From NCBI GenBank assembly GCA_016188215.1, contig JACPIF010000010.1:43174-107173 (forward strand): DNA of 64,000 nt, written 5' to 3'. Positions within the stretch are counted from its first letter, which is position 1; each line of letters begins with the position of its first letter. Positions 9,232-49,133 of this stretch are shown piece by piece. Source of the DNA: Candidatus Woesearchaeota archaeon (lineage in GTDB: Archaea; Nanobdellota; Nanobdellia; Woesearchaeales; JACPIF01). Below the pieces are notes generated by a model. The model was not told the origin of the DNA. It saw only the letters and a program-made list of their open reading frames with translations, and did not search any database. The position numbers were made by a program, and so were the translations under genes.

Positions 9232-9939
9232 ATGGTTGAAGTCAGCGTTATTGCAGCATTTCTTGCAGGCATCGTATCGTTCCTGAGCCCCTGCGTGCTG
9301 CCCATCATACCTGGATTCCTTGCATACCTTTCCGGAACTTCGTTTGATAATCCTGCAGGTGCACGCTGGAGGATATTTTTCAACAGCGTTGCATTTGTGC
9401 TGGGATTCTCTCTGGTTTTTGCATTGCTGGGAGTATTGCTCAATACAGTGCTTGACAGAATAGCATATTCAACCCAACTATGGCTTTCTCGGATAGGAGG
9501 AATTATCATCATCTTGTTTGGCCTGTATCTGCTTGGCTTGATCAAAGTTAATTTCCTTGAGCGGGAGCATAAGCTTAAGGTAAAAAAGAGGTTTAGCATC
9601 ACTTATGTAACCTCTTTCATCTTTGGAGCAGCATTTGCAGTGGGCTGGACACCATGTGTTGGAGCAGTGCTAGGCTCGATATTCGCATTGGCTGTCTCAA
9701 ATCCGGGCACCAGCTTCCTGCTCCTGAGCAGCTATGCCGTCGGATTGGGCATCCCGTTCCTGCTTGTAGGGTTGTTCTCGGCTCAGGCACTGACATTCAT
9801 AAACAAGCTTGGGCCATTCTTACGGTACTTCAACATAGTCATAGGCATACTGCTCATCATACTGGGCATACTTGTCTTTACGCAAACGCTTAACGTGATA
9901 GCTAATTTCAGCCTGCTCAATTATTTTCTCCTGAAATAA
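9232..9939 (+). CDS. ccdA: cytochrome c-type biogenesis / disulfide electron transporter CcdA (DsbD family)
   Basis: The 6-TM protein has LSPCVLPIIPGFLAY and a second conserved Cys (WTPCVGAVLG). Confidence 0.8.
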   Translation: MVEVSVIAAFLAGIVSFLSPCVLPIIPGFLAYLSGTSFDNPAGARWRIFFNSVAFVLGFSLVFALLGVLLNTVLDRIAYSTQLWLSRIGGIIIILFGLYLLGLIKVNFLEREHKLKVKKRFSITYVTSFIFGAAFAVGWTPCVGAVLGSIFALAVSNPGTSFLLLSSYAVGLGIPFLLVGLFSAQALTFINKLGPFLRYFNIVIGILLIILGILVFTQTLNVIANFSLLNYFLLK

Positions 9940-9942
9940 AAA

Positions 9943-12002: not shown

Positions 12003-12060
12003 AAGGCTCAAAAACAAGAAATAGTTTATAAATGTTAGTTTTAGCCCCGTGTCTAAGGAA

Positions 12061-25267: not shown

Positions 25268-26059
25268 TTACTTATTTTCATGATTCCTCTTTAACCGGTA
25301 CAGCATGATAGCTCCGCCCACAAACATGGGAAAAGTGAGCAGCTGACCCATGGTAAAGTAGCCCAAGAAGAAGCCAAGCTGTGAATCCGGCTCTTTCACA
25401 AATTCTATCAGGAACCGCAGAAGGCCGTACATTGTGACAAAGCTCCAGAACAGGAACCCGTCCGGAAGCATCTTATCTTTGATCTTCCATAAGGTTGCAA
25501 AGATGGCAAGATTCTTTAGCGATTCATATAACTGGCTGGGATGCCTGAATCCTTCTGCATCCGGAAATTTCACGCCCCAGGGCATCTCAGTTACCCTGCC
25601 GTATACCTCTCCATTGAGGAAATTGCCTATCCTTCCGAGAGCAAGGCCGATGGCAGCAGGTATCACTGCTATATCAGCAAGCTTATAGAAGCTGATCTTC
25701 TTTTTCCTGCAGAAATACCAGCCTGCAAGCGCCGCTCCCGCTAATCCGCCATGGAACGACAATCCGCCATGCCACACCGCAACCATCTCCAGGGGATTCT
25801 GGAGGTAATATTGAAGGTTGTAGAAAACAATGTAAAATACCCTTGCCCCTGCCACCACACCTACCAGGATGTACAGGATAAGGTCGGCTGCATCATCATC
25901 AGTAATGCCCAGCTTTCGCTGCTTAGCCAGGTATCTTATCATGAAATACGCTATGATGAATGAGAGCATGTAGAGCATGCCGTAATACCGTATCTCAAAG
26001 TTCGCGCCAAAGAGCGTGAAATCAAACAGTGTAGGATTTATGTTATGGATAAATACCAT
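25268..26059 (-). CDS. lgt: prolipoprotein diacylglyceryl transferase
   Basis: GANFEIRYYGMLYMLSFI..AGARVFY..ALGRIGNFLNGEVYGRVT..RHPSQLYESL are the Lgt signature motifs. Start is placed at the internal ATG 26057-26059. Confidence 0.7.
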   Translation of the reverse strand: MVFIHNINPTLFDFTLFGANFEIRYYGMLYMLSFIIAYFMIRYLAKQRKLGITDDDAADLILYILVGVVAGARVFYIVFYNLQYYLQNPLEMVAVWHGGLSFHGGLAGAALAGWYFCRKKKISFYKLADIAVIPAAIGLALGRIGNFLNGEVYGRVTEMPWGVKFPDAEGFRHPSQLYESLKNLAIFATLWKIKDKMLPDGFLFWSFVTMYGLLRFLIEFVKEPDSQLGFFLGYFTMGQLLTFPMFVGGAIMLYRLKRNHENK

Positions 26060-30029: not shown

Positions 30030-30030
30030 A

Positions 30031-30951
30031 TTACCTTAAGTCCCAGGCAAATTCCCTCCTATTGCCATGGTCAGATATTACAAGTTTAATAGACTTTGCC
30101 TGCTGGTTTATATCAGGAAAACTTAGGATGCCTTCCCTATGGTGGCCTCCAGGCGGGCTGCCTTCCCAGGAAACAGGCTGGTAAGCATCCTCCAAATCAT
30201 CGTAAAGGAGTGCAATCTTTGTGACATCAAAATCAAGCTCAACAGAATGTGTATTAATGCTTACCTTGAATTCAGAGGAGCTTACTGGCGTCACGGTAAA
30301 ATCAACATTATTCTGGCTGCTTGTCTGAGCTGCAGGGAACTTGTATGCAGCTTGTATCGGGGATGAGCCACCATCTTCCGAAAGGAAATAAAAAGAGGCA
30401 GCTACGGTAATAATTGAAGCAACAAGAAGCGCATAAAATATACTCTTAATCTTACGGCCTTTATCAATAGACCTGCTGCCCATTATGCTTGACATATAAA
30501 CTATGCCTAAAGCATTAGACAGCAGTCCAATCAGGAGGAAGGCAGTCTGGTATTTTGTAAAGAAGATGCCAAGGGCTGCGATGCCGAGGAAGGGAGCTAT
30601 ATCTGAAACATGGTGCGCACAGCACGCCACCATGGAGGTTGCTGAAGCGCCTGTTGAAACAGCAGCAGAGGCAGTGGCAGCCTTATGCATGGCATCACGC
30701 ATGTAGAAAAACATGCCCATCTGGACGCCGAACCCCACTGATAACGGAACCATCCAGTACCAAAGCGCCACGAAATTGTCTAATGCAAATTCTGCGCCGC
30801 CAAGCAGGGAGGCGACTATGAAGTAAAACATAAGCAGGGCTGCGCTTGCAGATATACCTATTATGAAGTATTTTTCTTTTGTTTCAGAAATCGAAGGTTT
30901 CTGAGACCCAGAACTTTGTTCTTTTGTTTCCGTATAAAAGGTTTTTTTCAT
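30031..30951 (-). CDS. membrane protein with CC..HH motif and soluble C-terminal domain (copper-operon partner)
   Basis: About 5 TM helices carry [17 protein letters not shown], and the tail ends PGGHHREG. The stop is 2 nt before the copA start. Confidence 0.5.
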
Positions 30952-31571
30952 TTTATTGCCTCAATAAAATCAATATTTCTTTTTGCTCTGGAGAGCCTAA
31001 TATTCCTAAACTTTGCCTGTTTAATAAAAAGAGGAATCTTGCCTTCATAATTATCTTTTCCTTCCTCAATATATAGCGGAATCCACATTAACATCGTCAT
31101 AAGTAGACCTTTTGGCTTTCCAAAATCAGTAACTATAAGCCTTCCTCCTTTCCTTAGGATCCTATACATTTCCCTGAATGCTGCAATTTTTTGAGGTGTC
31201 TTAAGGTGGTGAATCGCCAGAGTAGTTGTAATAACATCAAAGCTTTCATTAGGGAAAGGAAGCTTCTCAGCAGACCCATGAATGTATTTTATCTTTAAAT
31301 TGTTTTGGAGTGCTTTGCTCTTTGCTATACGCAATGCCTGCATATCAGGATCAAGGCCAGTAACTTCTAGATTGTGATATTTAGTCTTGTACAGCCTCGT
31401 CATTATACCTGTGCCGCATCCAATATCCAACAGCTTCCCTTTGCTTGGCAAAGCGGCTTTGCTTAGCAAATCTTTCCTGAACTTATCTCCAAGACCGATA
31501 ATGCTGCAGAGCAAGTCATAAAATCTTGTCAAAAAATGATATCTAAGGGGAGGGATATATCCATCTGCCAT
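30948..31571 (-). CDS. class I SAM-dependent methyltransferase (UbiE/Methyltransf_11-like)
   Basis: The motif LLDIGCGTGIMTRL..FDVITTTLAIHHL is present. The gene overlaps the downstream gene by 4 nt, indicating translational coupling inside the copper operon. Confidence 0.65.
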   Translation of the reverse strand: MADGYIPPLRYHFLTRFYDLLCSIIGLGDKFRKDLLSKAALPSKGKLLDIGCGTGIMTRLYKTKYHNLEVTGLDPDMQALRIAKSKALQNNLKIKYIHGSAEKLPFPNESFDVITTTLAIHHLKTPQKIAAFREMYRILRKGGRLIVTDFGKPKGLLMTMLMWIPLYIEEGKDNYEGKIPLFIKQAKFRNIRLSRAKRNIDFIEAIK

Positions 31572-31579
31572 TATATCAC

Positions 31580-31813
31580 CTAATGCCTATGCCCAGCTCC
31601 CTTACCATGGCGCATGCCGTACATCATCACCACATGCACCAGGATCATTGCACCAATTGCGATAAGCGTAAGCAGCGCATTATTCTTCCACCCAAAGTAC
31701 GGAGCTATTGCAAAAATAGCTATTGGAACTAGGCAGGCAAGCATCATAAGCCACATAGAATGGCCATGACCATCTGCAATGCCATATGTCTTCTTGGCAC
31801 TACCGGTTCCCAT
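31580..31813 (-). CDS. small His-rich membrane protein (DUF2933-like)
   Basis: GHGHSMWLMMLACLVPIAIF plus a His-rich tail (HGKGAGHRH) resembles the small proteins often found beside metal ATPases. Confidence 0.45.
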   Translation of the reverse strand: MGTGSAKKTYGIADGHGHSMWLMMLACLVPIAIFAIAPYFGWKNNALLTLIAIGAMILVHVVMMYGMRHGKGAGHRH

Positions 31814-32081
31814 AAGATCCCAGCCAGTTATAGATAAATGCAAATAAATATCCAGTGATTGCGGCCACTATAAACCATACGATCATGCCTGCAGCAATCC
31901 CTATAACGCTAAGGTTCTTTACTGCAATGCTGCCGATATCCACACTGTGGAACAGCATATTCGCTACACGTACAGTTGCCCCCAGCGGGAACACTGCAAC
32001 GAGCACCGCGCAGAGCAATGATATGCCTGCTGCCGTCGTGCCCAATGCAACCGCAGCAACATTCGGATTAAGTCGTTCCAT
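31800..32081 (-). CDS. small membrane protein (3 TM)
   Basis: This is the first gene of the copA-containing minus-strand operon. It is hydrophobic with no family recognised. Confidence 0.4.
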   Translation of the reverse strand: MERLNPNVAAVALGTTAAGISLLCAVLVAVFPLGATVRVANMLFHSVDIGSIAVKNLSVIGIAAGMIVWFIVAAITGYLFAFIYNWLGSYGNR

Positions 32082-32099
32082 TTTTATCTTCCTCCTTGC

Positions 32100-32240
32100 A
32101 TCTTAAAGATATATCTTATTTTGACATATAGTGAAACTAACAAATATTTAAATCTTTGCATTATATCCTATTTTGATATATGAGATTGCTTGGCAATCTC
32201 GGATACTCAAAAATAGGTCTATTTTTGATATATCAAGAAA
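32100..32240. promoter_or_regulatory. divergent promoter region with three ~52-bp-spaced ATTTTGAYATAT motifs and a perfect 8-3-8 palindrome
   Basis: The motif occurs at about 32114-32130, 32167-32182 and 32218-32234. The palindrome gagattgc-ttg-gcaatctc is at 32182-32200. The outer motifs sit about 25-30 nt from the two divergent start codons, which is a TATA-like position. Confidence 0.4.
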
Positions 32241-32260
32241 TACAAAGTTATTTATAATTC

Positions 32261-32698
32261 ATGCCATCCCCAATTGATATGGCAGACATCAAAGTGACCA
32301 ACATGGTGAAGTTCTACACGCTGAGCCTCCTGGCAGCGGGCCCTAAACACGGCTATGAGCTCCTCAAGGAACTGGAAGGCAGGCTGGGCAGGAAGATGAG
32401 CGCCTCCCATGTGTACCCTTTCCTAAACAGCCTGAAGCAGAAGCGGCTGGTTACCATCAACCGGAGGGGCGGCCGCGAAAAAAAGGTATACCAATTGACC
32501 CCGAATGGCAAGGCTTTCACCAGGCGGATGTTCGTAAAGTTTGGGGACCTCATCTCGCTTGCCATTGAGCCGAAGCTTACAATCTGCATGCAATGCGGCT
32601 GCAAAGTATATGAAGGCGGGCATGAGGAAAGCGTAGGTGGCAAAGCCATGAAGTTCTGCTGCCAATATTGCGCCAGGTCATACCGCTCCCGGCACTAG
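32261..32698 (+). CDS. PadR-family winged-helix regulator fused to C-terminal Cys-rich (zinc-ribbon/metal-binding-like) tail
   Basis: The PadR core is LAAGPKHGYELLKELE..HVYPFLNSLKQKRLV. The tail is CMQCGCKVYEGGHEE..KFCCQYCARSY. Confidence 0.55.
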   Translation: MPSPIDMADIKVTNMVKFYTLSLLAAGPKHGYELLKELEGRLGRKMSASHVYPFLNSLKQKRLVTINRRGGREKKVYQLTPNGKAFTRRMFVKFGDLISLAIEPKLTICMQCGCKVYEGGHEESVGGKAMKFCCQYCARSYRSRH

Positions 32699-32707
32699 CT
32701 ACTCCTG

Positions 32708-33229
32708 TTATTCCTTGCAGCAGTCCACCAGCTTCTTGACCATAAGCGAAAAGCGGCGCATCATCCCTTTCTCTGCATCCTCCTTCTGTAGGGCATCAGG
32801 TTTCCTGGCAGACTGACTGAATTCCTCAACTGCAACAAGCTTCAGATTTATAGCAAAGAATAATGAGTACATGTTGAAGGCAGCAGTGAAGAATTCCTCT
32901 GCCTCCTCAATATTTTTCCTTGAAAGCTCTTTTGTGCCGACTTCCATGAGGCGCATGCTGGCAGCCAGCAGATGCTTGCTGATGCACCATTCCTCCCCTT
33001 TAGGGCTCTTCACTATCTTGGCAAGCATCTTTTTCCGTAATTCGCGGACACTGTCCAGCATCTCAAGATACTTGCGGTTTCCGGTCTTCATGGCAGTAAA
33101 ATAAAGATGCTCTTCCAGGCTGAGCAGGTTCATTATGCCTATGCTAAGATCCTCGTCCCTTGAAAGATCAGCGCTCCCTTTCTTCTGCTCTTCCAGTTTC
33201 CTGAGCCAAACCTGTATCTCTTCTTCCAT
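32708..33229 (-). CDS. hypothetical cytoplasmic protein
   Basis: The ORF is 173 aa and helical, with a C-terminal CC. Confidence 0.35.
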   Translation of the reverse strand: MEEEIQVWLRKLEEQKKGSADLSRDEDLSIGIMNLLSLEEHLYFTAMKTGNRKYLEMLDSVRELRKKMLAKIVKSPKGEEWCISKHLLAASMRLMEVGTKELSRKNIEEAEEFFTAAFNMYSLFFAINLKLVAVEEFSQSARKPDALQKEDAEKGMMRRFSLMVKKLVDCCKE

Positions 33230-33239
33230 GCAGACCTCC

Positions 33240-33782
33240 TCATACGATAAAGTACAATCCCAGCCAGCCTAAGCCTAAGGCCATTACAGTCAACGCAACC
33301 CCCTGGTAGGGGAACAGGACCTTGCCCCGCACAGCCTTAATCCTCACATGAGTCCAGTAAGCAATAATGGTGAGCAATGCGCCAAAGGCGCTGCCAAACA
33401 GCATCTTTGGAATCCAGTACACCTTGTTCAGCAATGTTCCGGGCTCTCCGCCAAGCAGGATTGGCAAATATAGCATATCATTATTGATGTACAGCAGTGG
33501 CATTACTGTCAGCAATAAGGAACTGACCGTAAGCACTGATTTTTGGAATGGAACCTTGGCTCCGTATCTTCTTTCTATAACCAGTGCAAACCATAATCCT
33601 GTGGATATCCCGAAAGCGCCCAGCATCAATCCTATGAGGCTTGGGTCAAAGCCATAATAGCTTGCAGAGGCAGCAGCGCTACCCACAGCTATGGTACATA
33701 GAGGGCAATGCGCCCATGCCTGCGGCATCCTTAACAGCAGAAGTGCCGGGAGTGCAAAAAGCCAAAAAATTACCTTTTTCAT
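33240..33782 (-). CDS. membrane protein with N-terminal HCPLC motif
   Basis: Start is placed at ATG 33780-33782 (MKKVIF). The signal-like N-terminus is followed by AHCPLCT and about 5 TM helices. Confidence 0.45.
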   Translation of the reverse strand: MKKVIFWLFALPALLLLRMPQAWAHCPLCTIAVGSAAASASYYGFDPSLIGLMLGAFGISTGLWFALVIERRYGAKVPFQKSVLTVSSLLLTVMPLLYINNDMLYLPILLGGEPGTLLNKVYWIPKMLFGSAFGALLTIIAYWTHVRIKAVRGKVLFPYQGVALTVMALGLGWLGLYFIV

Positions 33783-33784
33783 GG

Positions 33785-33943
33785 TTAATGACAGCACCCG
33801 CCCTTCTTTGAATTTTTAGCATTTTTCTCGTATTGCTGAACACATGCACTTGAGCAAAACCACTCATCATGCTTCCGTATCCCCTTGCCTTTTTCTTCTT
33901 TCATTCCACAAATTGGATCTTTTTTCCTTAGGAAGCCAAACAT
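33785..33943 (-). CDS. YHS/TRASH-domain metal-binding protein
   Basis: DPICGMKEEKGKGIRKHDEWFCSSACVQQYE matches the YHS pattern (DPVCGM.V....YYFCS..C...F). The C-terminus ends GGCCH. Confidence 0.6.
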   Translation of the reverse strand: MFGFLRKKDPICGMKEEKGKGIRKHDEWFCSSACVQQYEKNAKNSKKGGCCH

Positions 33944-33944
33944 T

Positions 33945-34283
33945 TTAACAACCCCCAACCATGCCGGATGATGAAGGTGTTGCTCCTTGCTGCACTCCCG
34001 CAGGAAGCACGCCATGGTGCTCATACATCATCTTATCGTTCTCTGACCATGAGGATATGTCAAGCGATTGCTGCCCTGCCACTGATGCTCCAGACGCAAT
34101 CTCTCCCCTTAGTGTATTTATCTGGAATGCCTGCACTACTACAAACAGCAGCACAAGGCTGACCATGCCGAGGATTATGTAGCTCCTTAGCTTGCCCTGG
34201 CCTGATTCATGGCTCTCTCCAGCTTTTTCCTTGCTGTGTGAGCCACAGCAATCCTCTACTCCTTTTTCGTCTCTATGTCTCAT
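33945..34283 (-). CDS. single-TM protein ending in C-terminal MVGGC
   Basis: The N-terminus has DCCGSH, one TM follows, and the protein ends ..SSSGMVGGC. The SD GGAGGT lies 8 nt upstream. Confidence 0.5.
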   Translation of the reverse strand: MRHRDEKGVEDCCGSHSKEKAGESHESGQGKLRSYIILGMVSLVLLFVVVQAFQINTLRGEIASGASVAGQQSLDISSWSENDKMMYEHHGVLPAGVQQGATPSSSGMVGGC

Positions 34284-34392
34284 TTTTGATACCTCCGAAT
34301 TTATGAGGAGGTTCCAAATTCCTGTTTGATACCTCCGAATTTATGAGGAGGTTCCAAATTCCTGTTTGATACCTCCGAATTTATGAGGGGGT
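34284..34392. repeat. 40-bp direct repeat x2.7 in 5' region of 33945-34283
   Basis: The unit tttgatacctccgaatttatgaggaggttccaaattcctg repeats with period 40. Each unit has the inverted repeat cctcc-N10-ggagg. Confidence 0.85.
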
Positions 34393-34453
34393 CAGAAACC
34401 GAGAAAAGCTATGCTTTTCTGGTCCCGAAAATCTATGGATTTTCGTGGAATTA

Positions 34454-35107
34454 TTAATTTTCTATACCCCTGTACTTGTTTGATGCTATATTTATGTAAT
34501 TCAGTTCAATCCCTTTCTTCTGCATGACTGCAGCTTTCTCAGCCATTATATCCGGGAAAAACAATGTTTTCCACTTGCCAAGCTCTTCAAGAATCTCATC
34601 ATCAGTGAATTCTGAGCCGTGGTTCCTGATGAGATATTTTGCAACGCCGCGCATCGCGAAGCTGTGCTGGCATCCGCATGCAGCTTCCCCATTCTGGAAT
34701 ATTATTGAATCTGTGCCGCAGCAATATTCGCAGCTTATCTGGCTGGCAATGCTGATGTACCTTTCCTTTTCCTCGCCTGAAAGCCTGATACCAGTATCAA
34801 GCCTTCCGAGCTTAGCTATAGTACCGTCAGCCTTCTTCTGGTCCTGCAGCGAGATGTCGTCATAGCTGACACTGAGCTCGGCGCCGTATATCCTTGGCAT
34901 TCCTTTTGGGAATATGTCAGGCAGGTTCTCCTTGGCCGGCTGTGCCTGCACACCTTGCTGCATGATGGCCTGCCCTTGTATAGTATTGGAGGGAGCATTC
35001 ATGCTTCCCATACCCATCAGCTGGAATTCGTTGAATCCAGCTATGAACATGCCTGCAACCAATAATCCTAATACCAAGCGATCTATATTATCAATCTGCA
35101 TTTGCAA
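34454..35107 (-). CDS. membrane-anchored Cys-rich protein, CxxCC..CGC family (paralog of 43851-44579)
   Basis: ISCEYCCGTDSIIFQNGEAACGCQHSFAMRGVAKYLI.NH..TDDEILEELGKWK is collinear with ISCEFCCGAPSVVDNNGRDLCGCSHAQSFMGLSKYLIKTH..TNDEILLELTKWK. Confidence 0.5.
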   Translation of the reverse strand: MQMQIDNIDRLVLGLLVAGMFIAGFNEFQLMGMGSMNAPSNTIQGQAIMQQGVQAQPAKENLPDIFPKGMPRIYGAELSVSYDDISLQDQKKADGTIAKLGRLDTGIRLSGEEKERYISIASQISCEYCCGTDSIIFQNGEAACGCQHSFAMRGVAKYLIRNHGSEFTDDEILEELGKWKTLFFPDIMAEKAAVMQKKGIELNYINIASNKYRGIEN

Positions 35108-40075: not shown

Positions 40076-41074
40076 CTATTTGAGCTTGAGCTTTAAATTC
40101 TTATCTTTTTGCTTGCTGGACTGCCTGGCCTTGCCACTTCTTCTCCAAAAGTAGACCATCAATATAATAAATGCTGCCAACAGCAGCCCGCCAAGGATAT
40201 TGCCGAGAGCAGAGCCGAACAGTTTGCGCTGCCAGTCATAGAAGAGCAATTTGCCGCCGAACATGCTGAAGGCATTGAACTTCCAGGTTCCTCTGTAAAC
40301 GTAGATGATAACTCCCATTGCGATTAAAAGCAAGCCTCCGAGCATGTTGCTTGAATTAAATGCAAACCTGCCAAGATAGATTGTCTTGCCGCGCATCCAG
40401 GGCTTGCTTCCAAGATCATAGCGGTCATATAATCCTGCTATGATGAACAATGGGACAAGAATACCTATCCCGTAAAAGAAGAATAGCAATGTTGCATAGA
40501 AGAAATTGTGCAAATAAGTTGCCATGACAAGAATTCCTACTAAGATAGGCCCTAAACAGGCGCTCCACCCAACAACAAAGAACATACCTAGAAGGTACAT
40601 GCCAAGGTAATCATGCCTGAACCTTCCGGGCTTGATGAACGAGGAAAATCCTTTGCCAAAGAACAGCATTATGCCTAAAGCAATAAGAAGCAGCCCGGAC
40701 ACCTGGGGCAATATGGATGACTCTTCCTGTAAAAAGAGAAATGATTTTCCTATATAGGCTGCAATTAAGCCGAGAGCTATAAACACTGTCATAAACCCGG
40801 CAGAAAATGCAAGCATTACCCTAAAGATATCCTTCTTTTCCTTAAAGGTAAATGCGAAGAAAGCAGGAAGTGTAGTTGCAGTGCATGGGCTCAGCAAGCT
40901 GATGAATCCTGCAAGGAAAGCTATGAGGAATGATATGTTCCTCACATTAGCTTCAGCATCCTGCTGGTTTGATGCCATGGCATTCAGCAGGCTCTGCGGC
41001 AGCTGCTGGGGATATGCAATCGGTATAAATAATAAGACAAGAAATAAAAAAATAACTATATTTTTGGTTTTCAT
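40076..41074 (-). CDS. DsbD/CcdA-family transmembrane disulfide electron transporter (extended)
   Basis: A signal peptide is followed by LSPCTATTLPAFFAF and a second conserved Cys (WSACLGPILVG). Confidence 0.7.
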   Translation of the reverse strand: MKTKNIVIFLFLVLLFIPIAYPQQLPQSLLNAMASNQQDAEANVRNISFLIAFLAGFISLLSPCTATTLPAFFAFTFKEKKDIFRVMLAFSAGFMTVFIALGLIAAYIGKSFLFLQEESSILPQVSGLLLIALGIMLFFGKGFSSFIKPGRFRHDYLGMYLLGMFFVVGWSACLGPILVGILVMATYLHNFFYATLLFFFYGIGILVPLFIIAGLYDRYDLGSKPWMRGKTIYLGRFAFNSSNMLGGLLLIAMGVIIYVYRGTWKFNAFSMFGGKLLFYDWQRKLFGSALGNILGGLLLAAFIILMVYFWRRSGKARQSSKQKDKNLKLKLK

Positions 41075-41075
41075 A

Positions 41076-41498
41076 CTACCTGACGATAATGCTGCCTTTC
41101 ATGTCACTATGGCCTGAGCCGCAGAAAACAGTGCATATCATGCCTGGATTGAATGTTCCTGTCTTGTCTGCAACAAATTCAATAGTCTGGGTCTCGTTAG
41201 GCGGCAGCCTGACGCTCTCCACGCCGAAATCAGGCAGTGCCATGCCGTGGGTTACATCAATGCTTGTCACTTTCAGCCTTACCCTGTCCCCTTTATTGAC
41301 TTCAATAGTACTGGGAATAAATTCCCATCTCTTTGCAGTAATCTCAAATTCCTTGACGGGAATTGTCACGCTATTTCCAGTATTATCTCCGGTATTATCT
41401 CCAGTATCCTCTTCAGTATCAGTTCCCTGAACTATTGGCTGAGTCTGCGTGCAGCCTGCTAAAAGCAGGAGAGCGATCAATATAAGATATTTTTTCAT
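41076..41498 (-). CDS. cupredoxin-domain lipoprotein with CuA-like C-x3-C-x3-H-x2-M motif
   Basis: The lipobox is LAGCTQT. The motif EFITAKRWEFIPSTIEVNKGDRV..THGMALPDFG..GMICTVFCGSGHSDMKG has COX2/NosZ-like CuA ligand spacing. Confidence 0.6.
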   Translation of the reverse strand: MKKYLILIALLLLAGCTQTQPIVQGTDTEEDTGDNTGDNTGNSVTIPVKEFEITAKRWEFIPSTIEVNKGDRVRLKVTSIDVTHGMALPDFGVESVRLPPNETQTIEFVADKTGTFNPGMICTVFCGSGHSDMKGSIIVR

Positions 41499-41528
41499 GT
41501 AGACCTCTGAAAAGCTATTTCTCTGAAA

Positions 41529-42767
41529 CTATTGAGCCTGCGGCTGCGGCTCAACAACCTTATTGCTCTTTAGATCCTTATAAGTGCCCAGCGCTTCAGT
41601 AAACCTGAACACATAAACAGCCTCACCAGTGGCTGTATCGTTAGTTGCGGTGCCGACCTCTTTCCATAGTTCCACCACCTGCGGATAGGCTTCCAAATCA
41701 TTGGAAAGGAAAATTGTAGGAACCTTTGTTATATTATAATTCTGCAGGAATCTTTTGCCTTCATTTGATGAGATATCATATGTGTGCTCATCCCCTGTTG
41801 TGACCCCTAAGCTAGCCAATATCTGCTTGTGAAGGGCAGCATCATAGCATGCAGTGCAGCTTTTGTCAGTGATATAGGTTATATCAACCAACCCCACAAT
41901 ATCTTTTTTCTGCAGGTCATAGTAAGGCATGGCGACTTCCCGTAATATATATGAGCCGTCTGCTTCATGCGTTCCTACTGCAGCCCAGTTCTGCTGTACA
42001 GCCTCATAATCGCCAATGCTGTCGCTGAACACCAATGCAGGCAATTTCTTTATGCTATACTTGCTGAGCAGCTGCTGCCCTTCCTTTGAAGAGGCTTCAT
42101 ATTTTTTTTCATCATTGATATAAACGCCGGCTGCCTTAGCCTGCACCAGGAATTCATTCAGGTCAGTGCAGTTTCTGCAACCATCCTTAAATATAAGGAC
42201 AGCACTTACCACACCTTTCAGGCTGCCTGTCTTCAAGTCAATGTACGGCGCAGGGGTTGCAAGGACATAAGCATCATCCCTTTTCTCAAGCTGCTGTGCC
42301 AGGCCGCTCTTTTCAACCTCGCCGGTTACTATCAACGCAGGGATACGCTCAATGCTATATTGTGCTATAAGCTCCCGGGCCTGCGCATCGTTTCTCTCAT
42401 AAACTGTTTCTTTTGTTACAGTAACCTTGCCTTCCTTGAGCAATTCTACAAGCCTTTCAAGCGCAACGCAGTTTGTGCAGCTGCTGTCTTTAATAGTGAC
42501 AAACTGGAGCTGCGCCGGCTTTGACTGCTCCTCAGCCTGTGCAACTGTATTTTTTATCTGGCCCTGCAATATAAACAGGATTATCACATTGACAATCAAT
42601 ATGGCTGCAAGCCCTATAAGAAGGACGTTTCTCCAGTTTTCCCAGTCAAACTGCTTATCCCTAGCCATTGGCTCCAGGCGCTTTTCGTGTTTCAAACCTC
42701 CTGGTTTGAGACTAGGAACAAAGTTCCTATGCTTCATTTTATGCCCTTTCTGCTTTCCAGTATCCAT
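41529..42767 (-). CDS. membrane-anchored protein with three tandem thioredoxin-fold CxxC modules
   Basis: A TM anchor is followed by three repeats: SCTNC..RIPALIVTGE, GCRNC..KLPALVFSD and SCTACYDA..KVPTIFLSN. Confidence 0.55.
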   Translation of the reverse strand: MDTGKQKGHKMKHRNFVPSLKPGGLKHEKRLEPMARDKQFDWENWRNVLLIGLAAILIVNVIILFILQGQIKNTVAQAEEQSKPAQLQFVTIKDSSCTNCVALERLVELLKEGKVTVTKETVYERNDAQARELIAQYSIERIPALIVTGEVEKSGLAQQLEKRDDAYVLATPAPYIDLKTGSLKGVVSAVLIFKDGCRNCTDLNEFLVQAKAAGVYINDEKKYEASSKEGQQLLSKYSIKKLPALVFSDSIGDYEAVQQNWAAVGTHEADGSYILREVAMPYYDLQKKDIVGLVDITYITDKSCTACYDAALHKQILASLGVTTGDEHTYDISSNEGKRFLQNYNITKVPTIFLSNDLEAYPQVVELWKEVGTATNDTATGEAVYVFRFTEALGTYKDLKSNKVVEPQPQAQ

Positions 42768-42780
42768 CGTATCAACTCTT

Positions 42781-43281
42781 TTACACTACTTGGCTGCCTT
42801 GCCCGGCTTCTGTATCTTGATTTGCTGCCATTCCCGAGAGCGGGCATCCTGTTAGCTGTGACAGCCTATCAAAGCTTTGTACACCCTCATACCGCTCGCC
42901 ATTGATTTCCCATGTAGGGGTTTTCCTGATGCCTTGAGTTTCCTTGTAGTCCTTATAATTGACATACTTGAATGAATTGCCAAACCAGGCTGCCTGCTGT
43001 TTCGTATACTGGCACCAGCCAATTGCACCGTACATGACTGCGCCTTTATCCGTAAGGCATTTTGCAAATGCGTCATACTGCCCTGGCTTGAATTTAGCTG
43101 AGTATATTGAATATGAAAGCCCGCCGAAGATCAATACAATGATGACAGCAGCACTAATGAAATAAAGCCTTGTTTTCCGGCTTTTTTCACCCTGAAATCT
43201 TGCCAGGTCAGCCTCATGCTGCTTTCTGAGCGCTTCTGCCTGCTCCCTGTGCCTTTGCTGCGCTAGCTTAGAACTATCCAT
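42781..43281 (-). CDS. membrane-anchored VKOR-associated-type thioredoxin-like domain with CxxT in place of CxxC
   Basis: VMYGAIGWCQYTKQQAAWFGNSFKYVNY..TPTWEINGERYEGVQSFDRL resembles the Trx domain fused to bacterial VKORs. The second Cys is Thr. Confidence 0.5.
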   Translation of the reverse strand: MDSSKLAQQRHREQAEALRKQHEADLARFQGEKSRKTRLYFISAAVIIVLIFGGLSYSIYSAKFKPGQYDAFAKCLTDKGAVMYGAIGWCQYTKQQAAWFGNSFKYVNYKDYKETQGIRKTPTWEINGERYEGVQSFDRLSQLTGCPLSGMAANQDTEAGQGSQVV

Positions 43282-43308
43282 TGTGCATGCATTTTCTTGT
43301 GCATAATA

Positions 43309-43533
43309 TTATGCAGATGGCGCTCCTGCACTGGCTGCATCAGCTGCCGCGCCTGTGTCTGCTGCAGGCGCTGCGACTCCGCATCCGCCGCCTACGGCAG
43401 CCTGCTGCCCCTGAGGCTGGCCCTGATATGCCGCATATCCTGATGGCGTCTGGTTTTTAGTGCATCCTGCCAAAAGCAGAAGAGAGATGCTTATAACCAA
43501 TGCCACAACTAAAATTCCTTTTCTCATTAGCAT
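43309..43533 (-). CDS. small Gly/Ala-rich lipoprotein
   Basis: The lipobox is LAGCTKN, with a GGGCGV motif. Confidence 0.4.
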   Translation of the reverse strand: MLMRKGILVVALVISISLLLLAGCTKNQTPSGYAAYQGQPQGQQAAVGGGCGVAAPAADTGAAADAASAGAPSA

Positions 43534-43620
43534 TACCCCCGTATTTTATTATTTCAAAATAAAATAATAAGCAAGCAAAAATAGCCTGCTATTTAAAGCT
43601 TGTTGCCCGCGTACAGTCCG

Positions 43621-43857
43621 CTAACAGCCGCCTACCATTGTCGGCAGGTTCTGGATGCTTGACGGCACATTCGGGCTGCCCTGCTGTCCGGACTGGCTTA
43701 CTGTGTTTTGGGCAGTTCCGCCTACTTTCAACTGGCCGCTTGCCAGCTTGCTTTTCAGGCCTACTAACTGAACTGCCTGCACCAAGGTTACTAATACCAG
43801 CACTACCAGCACAATCACGATTACTGTATTCTTGTTCATTTCTAAACCTCCTAACAA
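43621..43857 (-). CDS. single-TM protein ending in C-terminal MVGGC
   Basis: The protein has a TM and a Gln/Ser-rich tail, and ends ..IQNLPTMVGGC. Confidence 0.5.
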   Translation of the reverse strand: MLGGLEMNKNTVIVIVLVVLVLVTLVQAVQLVGLKSKLASGQLKVGGTAQNTVSQSGQQGSPNVPSSIQNLPTMVGGC

Positions 43858-44579
43858 CCTCCTACCATTGCCGGCAGCGCGCCTATGCTTGAGGTATCGC
43901 CTGTGCTTAGCTTGCTCAAGAGCTGCGCATCGTTTAGGCTGGATGCAGTGAGCTCCATGTCATTGCTCAGCAAGGCTGCTGCCTTTTCTACCATATTCCT
44001 GGGGTAGTATAAAGATTTCCATTTTGTCAATTCAAGCAGGATCTCATCATTTGTATATTCAGGATGCGTCTTGATGAGATATTTTGACAGGCCCATGAAT
44101 GATTGCGCATGGGAGCATCCGCACAGGTCCCTTCCATTGTTGTCAACTACTGAAGGTGCCCCGCAGCAGAACTCACAGCTGATCCTTGTGCCAATGTCAA
44201 TATACCTCTGCTTTTCATCACCAGTCAGGCTGCCTGTTGGCACTTGGCCATGGAGGCTCGCCAGCCTGTTAAGGCTATTTACTGGATCGTCATATGAGAC
44301 TCCAAGCTCAGGCCCCCACTCGGGAGTTCCAGTAGGTATCAACGCGTTGATTGCATCCTGGACATTATCGCCTGTGCGCTTCACTTCAAGGGCAAGCTCG
44401 CCGCTCGTTCCTTTAGTCATCTTGCTGCCTGAAGGGGTAAACGTCTTAGATATAGTATTTGTGCTCAAAGGGCCAGGGCTTGCAATGGTTGCAATCTGGA
44501 ACCAATTGAATAGAATCAGGAGTGCGACCGCACCAATCACGTATAAGCTGTATCTTTCAACAAATTCGTTGCTTTTCAT
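43851..44579 (-). CDS. membrane-anchored Cys-rich protein, CxxCC..CGC family, with C-terminal MVGGC
   Basis: It is a paralog of 34454-35107 and ends ..IGALPAMVGGC. Confidence 0.55.
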   Translation of the reverse strand: MKSNEFVERYSLYVIGAVALLILFNWFQIATIASPGPLSTNTISKTFTPSGSKMTKGTSGELALEVKRTGDNVQDAINALIPTGTPEWGPELGVSYDDPVNSLNRLASLHGQVPTGSLTGDEKQRYIDIGTRISCEFCCGAPSVVDNNGRDLCGCSHAQSFMGLSKYLIKTHPEYTNDEILLELTKWKSLYYPRNMVEKAAALLSNDMELTASSLNDAQLLSKLSTGDTSSIGALPAMVGGC

Positions 44580-44685: not shown

Positions 44686-44733
44686 TATTCTCGTATTCTC
44701 GTATTCTCCTATTCTCCTATTCTCCTATTCTCC
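44686..44733. repeat. 8-bp microsatellite (TATTCTCS)x6 in divergent promoter
   Basis: The repeat reads tattctcg tattctcg tattctcc tattctcc tattctcc tattctcc and is followed by tatataatc. Confidence 0.8.
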
Positions 44734-45418: not shown

Positions 45419-45778
45419 ATGAGACGACTCAGGTTTGCCGGGACTAATGATTCTGTGCTGAGCCCGCTTGAAAATGATGTTCTAAAGATTCTGTGGCCTG
45501 ACAAGAGGATGAAGGTGCGCGCAATCTACGACAGGCTGAAAGGGAAGCGAAAGGTTGCCTTGTCAAGCATTGCGGTGATCCTGGACAGGCTGCATGAGCG
45601 CTCTATTGTTGAGCGGCAGATTGAGACAGGCAGAGGAGGGGTGCGCTATATATACTTCCCTAAGAAAAACAAGCAGGAATTTGAGACCGAGATCGTCGAA
45701 TCCACTGTCAATTCACTCATAAACAAGTTCGGGCAGACTGCAATCAGTTATTTCAATGAGCGGTTTTCAAAACGGTAG
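45419..45778 (+). CDS. BlaI/MecI/CopY-family winged-helix repressor
   Basis: LSPLENDVLKILWPDKRMKVRAIYDRL...ALSSIAVILDRLHERSIVERQ fits the family. Confidence 0.6.
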   Translation: MRRLRFAGTNDSVLSPLENDVLKILWPDKRMKVRAIYDRLKGKRKVALSSIAVILDRLHERSIVERQIETGRGGVRYIYFPKKNKQEFETEIVESTVNSLINKFGQTAISYFNERFSKR

Positions 45779-45817: not shown

Positions 45818-46564
45818 ATGGATCTAACGTGCTCAAGCTGCGCATATGCGTTTTTTACTGATCCCTTAAAGATGGGATTGGTACTTGTATCTTTTACCCT
45901 AGCCATAGCTTTTTTCCTGTATCTAAGATATGCAAGGGGCATAAGCAACGGAAGGAAACTCGGCCTGATATATGCCCACATATTCTTCCTGGTCTTCCCG
46001 GTTGTGTTTTATATGCTCTTTAGGGGATGTACTACATACTTCTCAAATTGTGACCAGCTCAAACCTGTCATAGCGCTGCTGTTCCTGACCGGCCTTACAG
46101 CAGGATTGCTGGGGGCAGTAATAGCTCCATTCCTCTTTATCAGGAAGCATGCCAGGATATCAATCCCATTAAGGGAAGGGCATCTTGCTGATGTTGTCAG
46201 GAAGCACGGCGGCAGGAAAAAGGCACAGCTGTACATGCTTGATACTGCCAAGCCGCTGGCATTTTCCACGTCTCACTTCAGCCATAAGATATTTGTCTCA
46301 ATCGGGCTGGCAGACCTGCTTACAAAGAAAGAAAAGGAAGCTGTCGTGCTGCACGAGCTCGCGCATCTTCATAATAAATCCTCGCTGCTGAAAAGCTCAA
46401 CCTTCCTGCTTGGCCTGGTGTCGCCGCTTTCAAACTTCTCAAGCATACATAGTGTAACGCAGGAGGAAGAGAAGGCAGACAGGTTTGCCGCGGCGAGGCA
46501 AGGCACCTGGCGCTATGTGCGGTCTGCAAAACAGAAGATTAACGAATTCTATAGAGAATCCTGA
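45818..46564 (+). CDS. BlaR1-like M56-family membrane metalloprotease
   Basis: About 4 TM helices carry HExxH (VVLHELAHLHNK). The gene is adjacent to the BlaI-like repressor. Confidence 0.6.
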   Translation: MDLTCSSCAYAFFTDPLKMGLVLVSFTLAIAFFLYLRYARGISNGRKLGLIYAHIFFLVFPVVFYMLFRGCTTYFSNCDQLKPVIALLFLTGLTAGLLGAVIAPFLFIRKHARISIPLREGHLADVVRKHGGRKKAQLYMLDTAKPLAFSTSHFSHKIFVSIGLADLLTKKEKEAVVLHELAHLHNKSSLLKSSTFLLGLVSPLSNFSSIHSVTQEEEKADRFAAARQGTWRYVRSAKQKINEFYRES

Positions 46565-46617: not shown

Positions 46618-47784
46618 ATGGTACGGATAGTAATTCTTGGAGCAGGATTCGGCGGCGTATATGCTGCGCTCCGCCTGCAAAAAGGGCTCAGGAAAGGGGA
46701 TTCATTGGTTGTAGTAAGCATCCAAAAGGATTTTGTGTTCACGCCCCTGCTTCATGAGGTCTCTGCAGGCTTCCTCAGCGCTTCAGACGTCTCTATACCA
46801 TTATCTTCACTTCTCAGGAAGTGCCAGCTGATACAGGGGGATGTCAAAAGCATTGACTTTAATAGGCAGGTTGTGGCGGCTGGCTCTAAAAAAGTTCCTT
46901 ATGATTTACTGCTCATTGCATTAGGCGCAATGCCCAATAAGAGCGTTCTATCCCATATAAATATAAAGCAGCGCAGGAAGTTCCTGCAGCTCAAGACAGT
47001 GCATGACGCCAAGGCTCTCCATAAGAGACTGGCTGATCCGCATAAGCAAAAAAGCGTCCTTGTTATCGGAGCCGGAGCAACAGGCATTGAGGCTGCAGCT
47101 GAGGCAAAAGAATTTTTCAAAGAAAATGGATTCAATGGAGCCAAAGTCTCTATTGTGCAGGACCTGCCTGATATATTTTTAGATAAGCCTGCGAGTTTCA
47201 GGAATTATATTAAAAAAAGCCTTGGAAGGCAGAATATTACTATTTTCTATGACGCCCTGCTTGCTTCCTATGCGGATGATACTGCGGTCATTCAAACGCC
47301 TGAAGGGAAAAAGAAGATTGAGGCTACAGTGCCACTATTGGCAGCAGGCGTGATTCCTGTCCCTGTCAAGACATTTCCTAAGATTACCGATGAAAAGGGA
47401 TTTTTTAATGTCAATCAATTCCTTGAAGTAAAAGGAGCAAAGAGCGTATGGGCAGTGGGAGATATCTCCTTATATCTCAATCCTGTAGACAAAAAGCCAG
47501 TCCCCATGCTTGCACAGGCCGCTAAAGATGAGGGGATATTTGCCGCAGGGAACATAGCCGCCAAGCTCAGCGGTAAGCCGCAGAAAGCCTACAAGTTCCA
47601 CAGCAAAGGTTTCCTGCTTTCACTTGGGAAGTTTGATGGTGTTGGGAATGCGTTCGGCATTCCTGTAAAGGGGTTCATTGCGTGGTGGCTGAAGCGCACT
47701 GCATATGCGATGGAAGCCCCGGGATTTTCAAATAAGCTGAGGATGTTCTGGAGATTGAGTATTGCATCGCTGTTCAAGAGGTAA
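46618..47784 (+). CDS. type II NADH dehydrogenase-like FAD-dependent oxidoreductase
   Basis: RIVILGAGFGGVYAA..FTPLLHEVSAG is the NDH-2/SQR-type Rossmann pattern. A second GxGxxG (LVIGAGATGIEAA) is present. Confidence 0.65.
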   Translation: MVRIVILGAGFGGVYAALRLQKGLRKGDSLVVVSIQKDFVFTPLLHEVSAGFLSASDVSIPLSSLLRKCQLIQGDVKSIDFNRQVVAAGSKKVPYDLLLIALGAMPNKSVLSHINIKQRRKFLQLKTVHDAKALHKRLADPHKQKSVLVIGAGATGIEAAAEAKEFFKENGFNGAKVSIVQDLPDIFLDKPASFRNYIKKSLGRQNITIFYDALLASYADDTAVIQTPEGKKKIEATVPLLAAGVIPVPVKTFPKITDEKGFFNVNQFLEVKGAKSVWAVGDISLYLNPVDKKPVPMLAQAAKDEGIFAAGNIAAKLSGKPQKAYKFHSKGFLLSLGKFDGVGNAFGIPVKGFIAWWLKRTAYAMEAPGFSNKLRMFWRLSIASLFKR

Positions 47785-47786
47785 AG

Positions 47787-48029
47787 TATTTAATTAAGTC
47801 CTTTTTTGCAAAGCCATTCAAGTGGGGCAGGATAAAAGCGAGATGCAGGAAATTTGCTGCGCTTCATTCAGTTGATGATTATTATGTCCCCCTGCAGCAT
47901 GCAGGTGTCTTAAAGAGAAGACTAAATGCAGAGCTTATAATAAAATACAACATGAGGCATTTCTCAAACTCAGACGGAATCAAAAAACTGCCTGACGGGC
48001 TGAAAGCCCTGCTGAAGATGGCAAAGTAA
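47787..48029 (+). pseudogene. 3' remnant of alpha/beta-hydrolase (YdeN/RBBP9-like serine hydrolase); no start codon
   Basis: The frame reads ..ALHSVDDYYVPLQHAGVLKRRLNAELIIKYNMRHFSNSDG..*, matching the C-terminal catalytic Asp/His region (hS.DD..VP...L...l.AEli...n.GHF). The N-terminal two thirds are absent. Confidence 0.5.
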
Positions 48030-48080
48030 ATCAAATAAAGAGTTCAACAAAAAACAATAAAAGGAAAATAAAAGAAGATT

Positions 48081-48228
48081 TTATAGCAAATCTCGTTAAT
48101 TATTGAACTCATAGGAAACTTTTGGTTTCCTTGTCCCAGAAACACAAGGTGTTTCTGTGATTTGCGAGATTTGCTAGAATAGTAAAGTGCTTATATATAA
48201 GTTCCATTATTTCTGCACTTTACTATTA
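48081..48228 (-). repeat. 149-bp repeat, copy 2 (inverted relative to 21570-21718)
   Basis: See copy 1. The last 3 nt supply the TAA stop of the DoxX gene. Confidence 0.85.
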
Positions 48229-48660
48229 CATCTCCTTCTTCCACAGCATTTTCTCAAGGCTCAACGGTCCTGGTCCTGAAACTATCAGTGCCAGTGCTAT
48301 GCCGAGCAGCCCCAGGTCGAGCTCGTAGCCGCCCAGGAGGCCCATGGCCCACTTGACCTTCCAGATAGCTACAATCATGACAATAGCTATCAGCGCAGCT
48401 GCGTACCTGGTGAAGATACCAAGGAGCACTGCAATGCCGCCGACAAATTCAACGAGCGCCACAAGGTAGGCTGTTGCTGTCACCGCGGGAAATCCTAAGC
48501 TGGTGAGCATGCCCATCCAGGCTTCCATGCCGGGCATCATGCCAAATAATTTGCCCCACCCATGGGCAATAAATACAATACCCAACACAACACGAAGAAT
48601 AACAGGTGCCCAATCACTGTGCTTTGACAGTTGTTTGCTCCACATCATATCCACCTCCAA
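48226..48660 (-). CDS. DoxX-family membrane protein
   Basis: APVILRVVLGIVFIAHGWGKL.. fits the DoxX four-TM pattern. Confidence 0.65.
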   Translation of the reverse strand: MEVDMMWSKQLSKHSDWAPVILRVVLGIVFIAHGWGKLFGMMPGMEAWMGMLTSLGFPAVTATAYLVALVEFVGGIAVLLGIFTRYAAALIAIVMIVAIWKVKWAMGLLGGYELDLGLLGIALALIVSGPGPLSLEKMLWKKEM

Positions 48661-48725
48661 TAGTCTGATATATAGTAATTAAAAGGTGTATTCTATTATA
48701 ATATTAAAAGATTTCTATATTAAAG

Positions 48726-49133
48726 TTATATTAAAGAGAATAAAACAGCAATCATGAGATTAATAGCAGCAGAGCCCAAACATACCATGCATCTAGTCTT
48801 TAGCTTTGCTACCAGAATGTATGTCAGATATAGGGACATGGCTGCTACGAACCACACTAATGCCAGAAAGGGAATCCTGTATCCGCTATCAGTAAAGAAC
48901 AGGGTAAAGCTTACTGCAATCAGCGCAGCGTAATAAAAAACTGAGAGCACATAATTTGGCACATAGAATATGCGCGCATACCTTGTTTTGACCAGTGAGG
49001 TACACTTGTCTCCTGCACACAGCATTGTATGCCTGTGCTCTTCTTTTCTGAGATGGTGCGTATAGATGAAATGCGCATTAAGCAGGAAGCCGAGGAGTGC
49101 AAGGGCTCTGATGGTATAAATAGGCAACGCCAT
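48726..49133 (-). CDS. vitamin K epoxide reductase (VKOR)-family thiol oxidoreductase
   Basis: It has the loop Cys pair CAGDKC and the TM4 active site CMVCLGSA, with 4 TM helices. Confidence 0.6.
   Translation of the reverse strand: MALPIYTIRALALLGFLLNAHFIYTHHLRKEEHRHTMLCAGDKCTSLVKTRYARIFYVPNYVLSVFYYAALIAVSFTLFFTDSGYRIPFLALVWFVAAMSLYLTYILVAKLKTRCMVCLGSAAINLMIAVLFSLI

Follow-up and report, generated by a model that had tools for sequence, protein, structure and literature searches.

We describe here an operon of seven genes, all on the minus strand, at positions 40076–44579 of a 64,000-nucleotide stretch of archaeal DNA (the window), and we consider it about an even call that this operon equips a DPANN (Woesearchaeota-like) archaeon with a reducing relay of thiols on the outer side of its membrane. 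Judged by source name, the closest homologues come from Woesearchaeota and other DPANN archaea; the source genome, in which the window lies on contig C13, comprises 1.11 Mb and is 91% complete. The first gene of the operon encodes a transmembrane (TM)-anchored, cysteine-rich (Cys-rich) protein of 242 residues ending in LPAMVGGC (43851–44579). It is followed by the genes for a mini-protein, listed at 78 residues, with a TM anchor, a Ser/Gly-rich linker and a C-terminal LPxMVGGC (43621–43857), a small lipoprotein of 74 residues with a GGGC motif (43309–43533), a membrane-anchored thioredoxin (Trx)-like domain of the VKOR type, 166 residues long and with the monothiol active site C90-Q-Y-T93 (42781–43281; the CxxT protein), a 412-residue protein with an N-terminal tail, one TM helix and three CxxC modules (41529–42767; the triple-Trx protein), a CuA-type cupredoxin lipoprotein of 140 residues, which is an accessory member (41076–41498), and a CcdA/DsbD-family membrane electron transporter of 332 residues, the last conserved gene of the operon (40076–41074). 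All intergenic gaps are 87 nucleotides (nt) or less by open reading frame (ORF) coordinates. An initial annotation of the window had recognized one extracytoplasmic redox cluster of four minus-strand genes at 40076–43281. All four ORFs are exact and they do belong to one syntenic, extracytoplasmic thiol-redox cluster, but they are only its downstream half: beyond 43281 three further co-directional genes (43309–44579) lie in the same operon, and the tightest partners of the triple-Trx protein (the MVGGC proteins and the GGGCG lipoprotein) had been missed. The 2-nt gaps that had been reported are in fact 1 nt between the CcdA and cupredoxin genes and 13 nt between the triple-Trx and CxxT genes (cupredoxin and triple-Trx lie 30 nt apart), and the inverted repeat that had been mentioned could not be recovered, as between 36 and 52 kb there is none of substance, only 21 pairs of 20–27 nt with 72–85% complementarity. 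The operon is a variant of the DsbD/CcdA-dependent envelope redox systems, in which known folds occur in an undescribed combination.

The conservation of the operon was examined in two sets of loci. The first comprised 20 genome loci around full-length triple-Trx genes, whose ORFs were searched with the window proteins, and the second, collected with a 17-sequence monothiol alignment as the query, comprised the best 80 of 484 metagenome relatives plus L081, i.e. 81 loci; used singly as a query against genome contigs, the CxxT protein had found one locus only. Neighbours were called by single-sequence phmmer at E≤1e-3 or 1e-4, with which distant members, VKOR included, can be missed. The loci come from related genomes and are not independent samples and, because contigs are short, the absence counts amount to lower bounds on presence. 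The mini-protein was found in 17 of the 20 genome loci, no more than 100 nt from the triple-Trx gene in 15, and the Cys-rich protein in 16, together with CcdA (nine loci), cupredoxin (four), a VKOR-type Trx (three, all CxxC) and VKOR (one). Among the 81 metagenome loci, triple-Trx was present in 53, the mini-protein in 48, the Cys-rich protein in 39, CcdA in 22, cupredoxin in 14 and VKOR in none. The gene order recurring in this set was (BlaI–M48, divergent)–(cupredoxin)–CcdA–Cys-rich–mini-protein–lipoprotein–CxxT–triple-Trx–(cupredoxin)–(CcdA), with the lipoprotein gene immediately preceding the CxxT gene in 49 of the 72 loci with room for it and the triple-Trx gene directly downstream in 40 of 74. 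These data show that the conserved core in relatives consists of the two LPxMVGGC proteins and the triple-Trx protein, often with CcdA (the short operon), that the long operon form carries in addition an inserted lipoprotein/CxxT cassette, and that in the window the long form is accompanied by cupredoxin and CcdA. The adjacency of these genes, which might have been incidental on the initial annotation, is syntenic across the genome and the metagenome loci. In the long loci L142, L157, L147 and L117, two or three DUF1573 Ig-like proteins in a row were also seen to adjoin the operon, with a dCache-DUF835 sensor protein beside them in the first three.

The triple-Trx protein carries, as annotated, three tandem CxxC sites, CTNC (97–100), CRNC (197–200) and CTAC (304–307). 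In 78 aligned sequences C97, C100, C197, C200, C304, C307 and the cis-prolines P143 and P350 are invariant and P243 is retained in at least 90%. Its AlphaFold2 model (pLDDT 91, pTM 0.77) predicts a disordered N-terminal tail, a long helix (42–82) and three units, each with the order β-CxxC-α-β-α-Pro-β. Pairwise identities between the modules are 29, 31 and 25% (E values of 3e-13, 9e-15 and 2e-8), with CxxC aligned to CxxC, indicating that the three are homologous to each other and derive from an internal triplication. The best Foldseek matches of the whole chain were PDI, ERp44, PfPDO (1a8l), ERdj5 and calsequestrin, with TM-scores of 0.12–0.16 that are low because the arrangement of the domains differs, and with VIA-align residues 85–173 and 185–280 (modules 1 and 2) matched thioredoxins, glutaredoxins and KaiB (Z 5–6.3, root mean square deviation 2.4–3.4 Å over ~72 residues). 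The PDO model TIGR02187 gave a match below its cut-off (E 4.7e-10). By homology, by the model and, for modules 1 and 2, by VIA-align, all three modules look like Trx-fold units; the initial annotation had left the fold of modules 2 and 3 to be checked, and the evidence does not point to its absence. Tandem Trx-fold units on one chain are likewise found in PfPDO, PDI and ERp44, but PfPDO, a cytoplasmic protein, has two units, whereas the present protein has three active CxxC modules and is predicted to be tethered to the outside of the membrane. The description of the triplication as uncommon did not hold within this group. A search at E≤0.001 gave 106 protein clusters, full-length homologues (E≤5.5e-84) occur in 24 of 301 class genomes, and three ESM Atlas clusters (87, 465 and 126 members) are for the most part archaeal. 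The family is widespread in DPANN archaea.

The proteins encoded upstream share cysteines on glycine-flanked arms. In all 39 aligned sequences of the lipoprotein, the lipobox cysteine C24 and G48-G49-G50-C51 are invariant (the wider motif is GGGCG), and this partner of the CxxT gene matched no family in Pfam or NCBIfam. All 18 sequences of the mini-protein, that of the window counted, end in VGGC, 17 of them in MVGGC; its relatives begin at an ATG six codons into the ORF as listed for the window. In 32 sequences of the Cys-rich protein, C135, E136, C138, C139, C153, G154, C155 and H157 are invariant. A profile search of the PDB with this family returned nothing better than E 0.57, and a Pfam scan of the 32 members gave scattered weak matches and left the window protein unmatched. 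Three relatives of the Cys-rich protein without the MVGGC tail (L031:8419-9630, L032:7291-8706 and L036:2388-3665) have, at the N terminus, an additional membrane domain in which a predicted helix contains C-P-x-C.

Glycine-flanked cysteines of this kind call to mind the sulfur carrier SoxY, whose arm has the motif GGCGG and which is reactivated by SoxV and SoxS. The operon might accordingly be read as a sulfur-carrier relay like SoxYZ with SoxV/SoxS/SoxW, in which persulfide or another sulfur adduct would be borne on the GGC cysteines at the cell exterior and the carrier would be reactivated by CcdA and the Trx proteins, a reading that we rate as highly improbable. The C-terminal VGGC and the internal GGGCG do recall the SoxY arm, in both systems a glycine-flanked cysteine on a flexible end is co-encoded with a CcdA-family protein (SoxV) and periplasmic thioredoxins (SoxS/SoxW), and rhodanese genes lie near the operon in two of 14 long loci. 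However, the likeness to SoxY/SoxZ ends with the glycine-flanked cysteine, there being no sequence match to the arm proteins; the three arm proteins match no Pfam or NCBIfam model, and thus no SoxY, and no Sox family appeared in the Pfam scan of 91 neighbour ORFs from the 14 long loci, Sox proteins not being among the queries. For the sox cluster itself, PMC5748708 describes soxS and soxV/soxW as regulated together with soxY.

The direction in which we read the relay follows from its transporter. The CcdA protein matched DsbD_2 (PF13386, 34.9 bits, cut-off 24.9) and DsbD_TM (PF02683, 31.3 bits, cut-off 27.1) and has only two cysteines, C64 (xPC) and C173 (CxGP), both of which are retained in 26 of 26 aligned full-length rows, the window row counted. 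Members of the DsbD/CcdA family move electrons outward across the membrane. A TrxB-like gene (302 bits) is present in the genome, and a second reducing cluster lies in the window at 8415–12077, made up of a Trx lipoprotein (8415–9230), a 235-residue CcdA (9232–9939), a TlpA/DipZ-like protein with a Thioredoxin_10 domain (9943–11052) and a convergent TrxB-like flavoprotein (11049–12077, minus strand). The TrxB-like gene and this second CcdA cluster with its TlpA-like proteins indicate that the organism runs outward-electron pathways and, taken with the direction of the family, lead us to read the relay as passing from CcdA to the triple-Trx protein and on to the arm cysteines. Besides two VKORs, the source genome encodes three DsbD-like transporters (two identified by Pfam, the third by eye) and numerous Trx proteins of the cell surface, and for a tiny DPANN genome to keep so many points to heavy investment in extracellular thiol chemistry.

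The identity of the CxxT protein was assessed both by profile and by structural model. A profile of 31 relatives matched best, in the PDB, the Trx-like domain of the Synechococcus VKOR (3kp9/4nv2) with an E value of 3.6e-24, including the preceding TM helix and with CQYT aligned to CPHC, and the predicted model (pLDDT 89) gave 3kp9, 4nv5 (two chains), 3kp8, 4nv6 and 4nv2 as its six top Foldseek matches. This bears out the initial assignment of 42781–43281 as a VKOR-type Trx domain with the active site WCQYT. The TM helix and Trx-like domain are common to both proteins, with 27–33% identity in the Foldseek alignments, but unlike the Synechococcus domain the window protein has CQYT instead of CPHC, has lost the two-cysteine loop and is neither fused nor adjacent to VKOR; conversely, it has a C75/C146 pair that is lacking at the aligned positions in Synechococcus. 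The monothiol site, also noted in the initial annotation, is real, as the focal homologues in all 81 metagenome loci are CxxT (76) or CxxS (5) and none has the CxxC that goes with a VKOR-associated Trx-like domain. Among 333 domain instances we counted 166 CxxC, 154 CxxT and 11 CxxS. On a FastTree phylogeny of 320 rows, with the active-site columns left out, the active-site state changed at least 7 times, and a single clade of 151 rows, the window protein among them, took in 150 of the 156 monothiol rows. No cysteine of the two-cysteine loop is left in 131 of 165 monothiol forms, and two are present in 164 of 166 CxxC forms. The co-variation of C75 and C146 (both present in 309 instances, neither in 16, a single one in 8) suggests that they form a structural disulfide. 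Judged from this pattern of conservation, CxxT is a conserved monothiol state under selection and not an error or accident.

Variants of the domain were also seen outside this clade. Three long proteins, P0209 (725 residues), P0294 (951 residues) and P0197 (458 residues), contain 3–5 matched stretches of the VKOR-type Trx domain, which in the first two include monothiol copies outside the main monothiol clade. In P0231 (276 residues) a canonical VKOR-type Trx is preceded by a fused membrane domain, with roughly four helices and several cysteines, that Pfam does not recognize and that may be an undescribed membrane partner in place of VKOR.

Homology to a VKOR partner domain raises the question of whether the operon serves oxidation rather than reduction. 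A stand-alone VKOR is indeed encoded at 48726–49133 (minus strand), as had been annotated; it matches PF07884 at 69.1 bits (cut-off 27.5; E 5.4e-19) and has both cysteine pairs, C39 and C44 in the loop and C115-xx-C118, but it adjoins DoxX (48226–48660) and not the Trx genes, and we judge it to lie outside the operon. Within 46618–49133 an NDH-2-like flavoprotein, DoxX and VKOR occur together, with an unannotated stretch (47785–48225) between them, hinting at a small quinone-linked module. One could therefore propose oxidative folding or isomerization at the cell surface, in which the triple-Trx protein would act on secreted proteins as an oxidase or isomerase of the PDI/DsbA type and be re-oxidized through the CxxT protein and this VKOR, with NDH-2 and DoxX as a small quinone loop; we regard this as distinctly unlikely. 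The top Foldseek matches of the triple-Trx protein (PDI, ERp44, ERdj5 and PfPDO) fit such a role, as do the homology of the CxxT domain to the VKOR partner domain, the position of the VKOR, DoxX and NDH-2-like genes only 3.3–5.5 kb away and a DsbA-like gene within the operon in locus L118. Moreover, PDI relatives of the CxxS type retain isomerase activity, and ‘non-canonical PDIs’ of this type are listed in the literature. Set against this, VKOR was matched in 0 of the 81 loci of the CxxT clade (by a single-sequence query, with which distant VKORs could be missed), a VKOR domain was absent from all 15 longer relatives scanned, and the gene linked to the operon is CcdA. A VKOR-type Trx occurs in 109 of the 301 genome representatives of the class; of its 29 best loci other than our own, 27 are CxxC (L052 and L068 could not be read by the motif pattern) and three (L054, L075 and L078, of the CxxC type) have a VKOR gene next door, such adjacency having been seen for CxxC forms only (L038 is a further case). 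A Trx domain lacking the resolving cysteine has no disulfide of its own to donate. Finally, a complete, canonical VKOR–Trx fusion of 306 residues, with CSSC and the loop cysteine pair, is already encoded elsewhere in the same genome (G000:C13:2637-3557, minus strand, outside the window), which makes the cluster most likely a CcdA-fed reducing relay and not a VKOR-driven oxidative folding system. As far as sequence relationships can tell, the monothiol clade has left the VKOR partnership, and a partnership of the CxxT domain with the VKOR at 48726 finds no support; a fusion of the two, which the initial annotation had suggested checking in relatives, was not found among the 15 longer relatives scanned, nor was a VKOR match in the 81 loci. 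Beside the VKOR–Trx fusion lies a 240-residue membrane ORF (3527–4249) that is DsbD-like by eye, with no PF02683 match.

Returning to the reducing relay, electrons would be drawn from the cytoplasmic thioredoxin system and carried by CcdA over the membrane to the anchored triple-Trx protein, which would keep reduced the tethered single-cysteine arms of the mini-protein, the Cys-rich protein and the GGGCG lipoprotein and, where a cupredoxin is present, may do the same for its CuA cysteine pair. As the resolving cysteine has been lost in CQYT, only mixed disulfides are possible for the VKOR-type Trx domain; its most probable task is to trap the arm cysteines or pass them along, chiefly the one on the lipoprotein encoded upstream, after which the triple-Trx protein would resolve the resulting adducts. 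The literature on ERp44 and AGR2-type proteins offers a parallel in monothiol CxxS relatives that act via mixed disulfides. What this computational analysis shows is the folds, the motifs with their conservation and the gene order; the topology at the membrane, the direction of the electrons, the substrates and a role in copper handling are inferred. The likely physiological role would be the protection and recycling of exposed thiols that bind or move copper. A bolder proposal, which we consider very unlikely, is that the CxxT domain and the glycine-flanked arms (GGGCG and MVGGC) form a ‘split’ redox centre whose resolving cysteine sits on a separate, mobile, tethered arm, and that the operon would encode an undescribed extracellular thiol conduit passing electrons or Cu(I) along the surface of an episymbiotic DPANN cell, possibly to or from its host.

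Two bacterial systems offer parallels to the relay. In Bradyrhizobium, according to PMC6669012, TlpA keeps the cysteines of CoxB and ScoI reduced ahead of copper insertion. As in this TlpA–ScoI–CoxB system, where an anchored extracytoplasmic Trx serves CuA cysteines, the present operon co-encodes CcdA, an anchored Trx and a CuA-type cupredoxin. It differs in that no Sco or PcuC family was found among the operon proteins or 91 neighbours, bar a weak secondary SCO1/SenC match on a peroxiredoxin, that the genome yielded no COX1, and that the Trx has three modules and its MVGGC and GGGC partners are of no known family. TlpA is fed by a transporter of the DsbD/CcdA type; CcdA is nowhere named in PMC6669012. 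The scs operon, for its part, gives copper tolerance, and ScsB, of the DsbD family, reduces Trx-fold proteins, as described in PMC3322552. Scs and the present operon both combine a DsbD-family transporter with envelope Trx-fold proteins; Scs (ScsB with ScsC/ScsD), however, is bacterial and periplasmic, its ScsB has an α domain of its own as compared with the minimal CcdA found here, and it is without a monothiol Trx or cysteine-tailed partners.

The link to copper was considered chiefly through the cupredoxin. This protein has a lipobox cysteine (C16) and the ligands H84 and C122-x3-C126-x3-H130-x2-M133, confirming the CuA-type spacing in the initial annotation; of the 27 cupredoxin sequences compared, that of the window counted, 23 have C-x3-C-x3-H-x2-M. 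It scored above the Pfam cut-offs for Cupredoxin_1 (PF13473, E 2.7e-9) and COX2 (PF00116, E 1.6e-7), and NosZ models matched it over their last ~100 positions only (E 6.9e-17; 61 bits against a cut-off of 625). As COX1 was not found in the source genome at its 91% completeness, we describe it as an orphan CuA protein. Membership of cytochrome oxidase subunit II or nitrous-oxide reductase fails, as there is no COX1 and no NosZ propeller with CuZ and the protein is a stand-alone chain of 140 residues. Short ‘nosZ-like’ proteins of DPANN archaea, which have CuA C-x3-C-x3-H, lack a CuZ site and are predicted to lie outside the membrane, are described in passages of PMC10936187. The window cupredoxin, whose best NCBIfam match is the C-terminal region of NosZ, fits this description, a likeness of description and not of orthology; those passages draw no connection to CcdA or thioredoxin genes. 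Fusions join cupredoxins to Trx proteins of both kinds: P0035 combines a triple-Trx protein with a cupredoxin whose ligands are type-1-like, and P0268 fuses a zinc-finger/TM/VKOR-type Trx (CSHC) to a domain that is cupredoxin-like by Pfam. The C-terminal part of P0205 resembles P0268 by eye, with the cupredoxin match absent in the Pfam scan. DUF411 proteins, a family that includes CopG, are neighbours in three of the 14 long loci. In the window, a CopA ATPase (27414–30029), a PadR–TRASH regulator (32261–32698) and a second MVGGC pair (33945–35107) lie 5–16 kb from the operon. On these grounds the copper link of the operon is suggestive only, and of the oxidative-folding and copper-delivery pathway that had been proposed initially some copper link remains, whereas oxidative folding is not supported, CcdA being linked and VKOR found in 0 of 81 loci.

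The metal-related stretch as a whole (27414–35107) was found to encode CopA with two HMA domains, a 306-residue membrane protein with a CC-x-HH motif and of no family, the PadR regulator with its TRASH domain and a 79-residue Cys-rich ORF, in addition to the second MVGGC pair; in the mini-protein of this pair the tail is preceded by a stretch rich in Met and His.

If copper is left aside, the operon could provide generic protection of exposed single cysteines, the CcdA-fed Trx reducing sulfenic acids or stray disulfides as DsbD–DsbG, which protects single cysteines, does in E. coli, with the cupredoxin incidental. We regard this as unlikely. In its favour, three conserved partner proteins each have one conserved exposed cysteine, CopA is found in 0 of 20 genome loci, and peroxiredoxin/TlpA-like proteins and desulfoferrodoxin are among those encoded nearby in long loci. 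Sulfenic acid reduction is named as one DsbD-dependent process in PMC3322552. Such generic protection would, however, leave unexplained the strong conservation, the invariant tails and the domain of five cysteines and a histidine, as well as the cupredoxin fusions to both kinds of Trx protein.

Several observations weigh against the copper-linked reducing relay that we prefer. The cupredoxin is accessory, with 4/20 genome and 14/81 metagenome loci, and CopA was matched in 0/20 and 5/81, which makes the copper link weak beyond the window. CcdA itself was found in under half of the loci (9/20 and 22/81, many contigs being short). None of the 20 genome loci has the lipoprotein/CxxT cassette, which is therefore accessory too, and in L050 a canonical CPHC VKOR-type Trx lies directly upstream of triple-Trx, indicating that the latter does not require the monothiol state. 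Module 3 is not among the VIA-align rows that match single thioredoxins; its assignment draws on its 31% identity to module 2 (E 9e-15), a Glutaredoxin match at 297–356 that is below cut-off (E 2.5e-4) and whole-chain Foldseek alignments with PDI-type proteins. The dipeptides within the CxxC sites (TN, RN and TA) give no indication of redox potential, and the direction of electron flow is taken from family membership and gene neighbourhood only.

In the literature library searched we found no paper on the combination of genes in this operon and none relevant to MVGGC, and among the DPANN papers listed none mentions CcdA or VKOR; in PMC8204110 thioredoxin, disulfide, copper, cupredoxin, DsbD and VKOR are all unmentioned. 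With a large monothiol offshoot of the VKOR partner (~150 clustered sequences), a lipoprotein with an invariant motif, a triple thioredoxin and two Cys-tailed proteins of no family, the operon offers a testable system, which could reveal how surface cysteines stay usable in cells that have no periplasm, how an orphan CuA protein is metallated and what role the widespread MVGGC proteins play.

Among the surrounding genes, a BlaI-type repressor (45419–45778, Penicillinase_R, E 3.9e-13) and an M48/BlaR1-like membrane metalloprotease (45818–46564, Peptidase_M48, E 3.9e-6) are encoded on the plus strand, divergently from the operon. We propose this pair as candidate regulators, their assignment to the operon being inferred; the pair adjoins the operon in two of the 20 genome loci, and BlaI is present in six of the 81 metagenome loci. 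The base-composition profile around the cluster showed no anomaly. An Lgt gene (window 25298–26005, minus strand; G000:C13:68471-69178) strongly matches the bacterial prolipoprotein diacylglyceryl transferase (E 1.4e-74); a search of control genomes for Lgt gave matches in bacteria only (10 of 14 genomes, and none of four archaea). Its presence fits the many lipobox proteins seen here, i.e. the cupredoxin, the GGGC lipoprotein and the Trx lipoprotein, and Lgt genes are also close to the operon in L145 and L149. Finally, head-to-tail copies of an 8-nt unit (TATTCTCG/C) span 48 nt (44686–44733) in the intergenic region where the first gene of the operon diverges from a 164-residue ORF that precedes the BlaI/M48 pair; the repeat may be an operator or promoter element.

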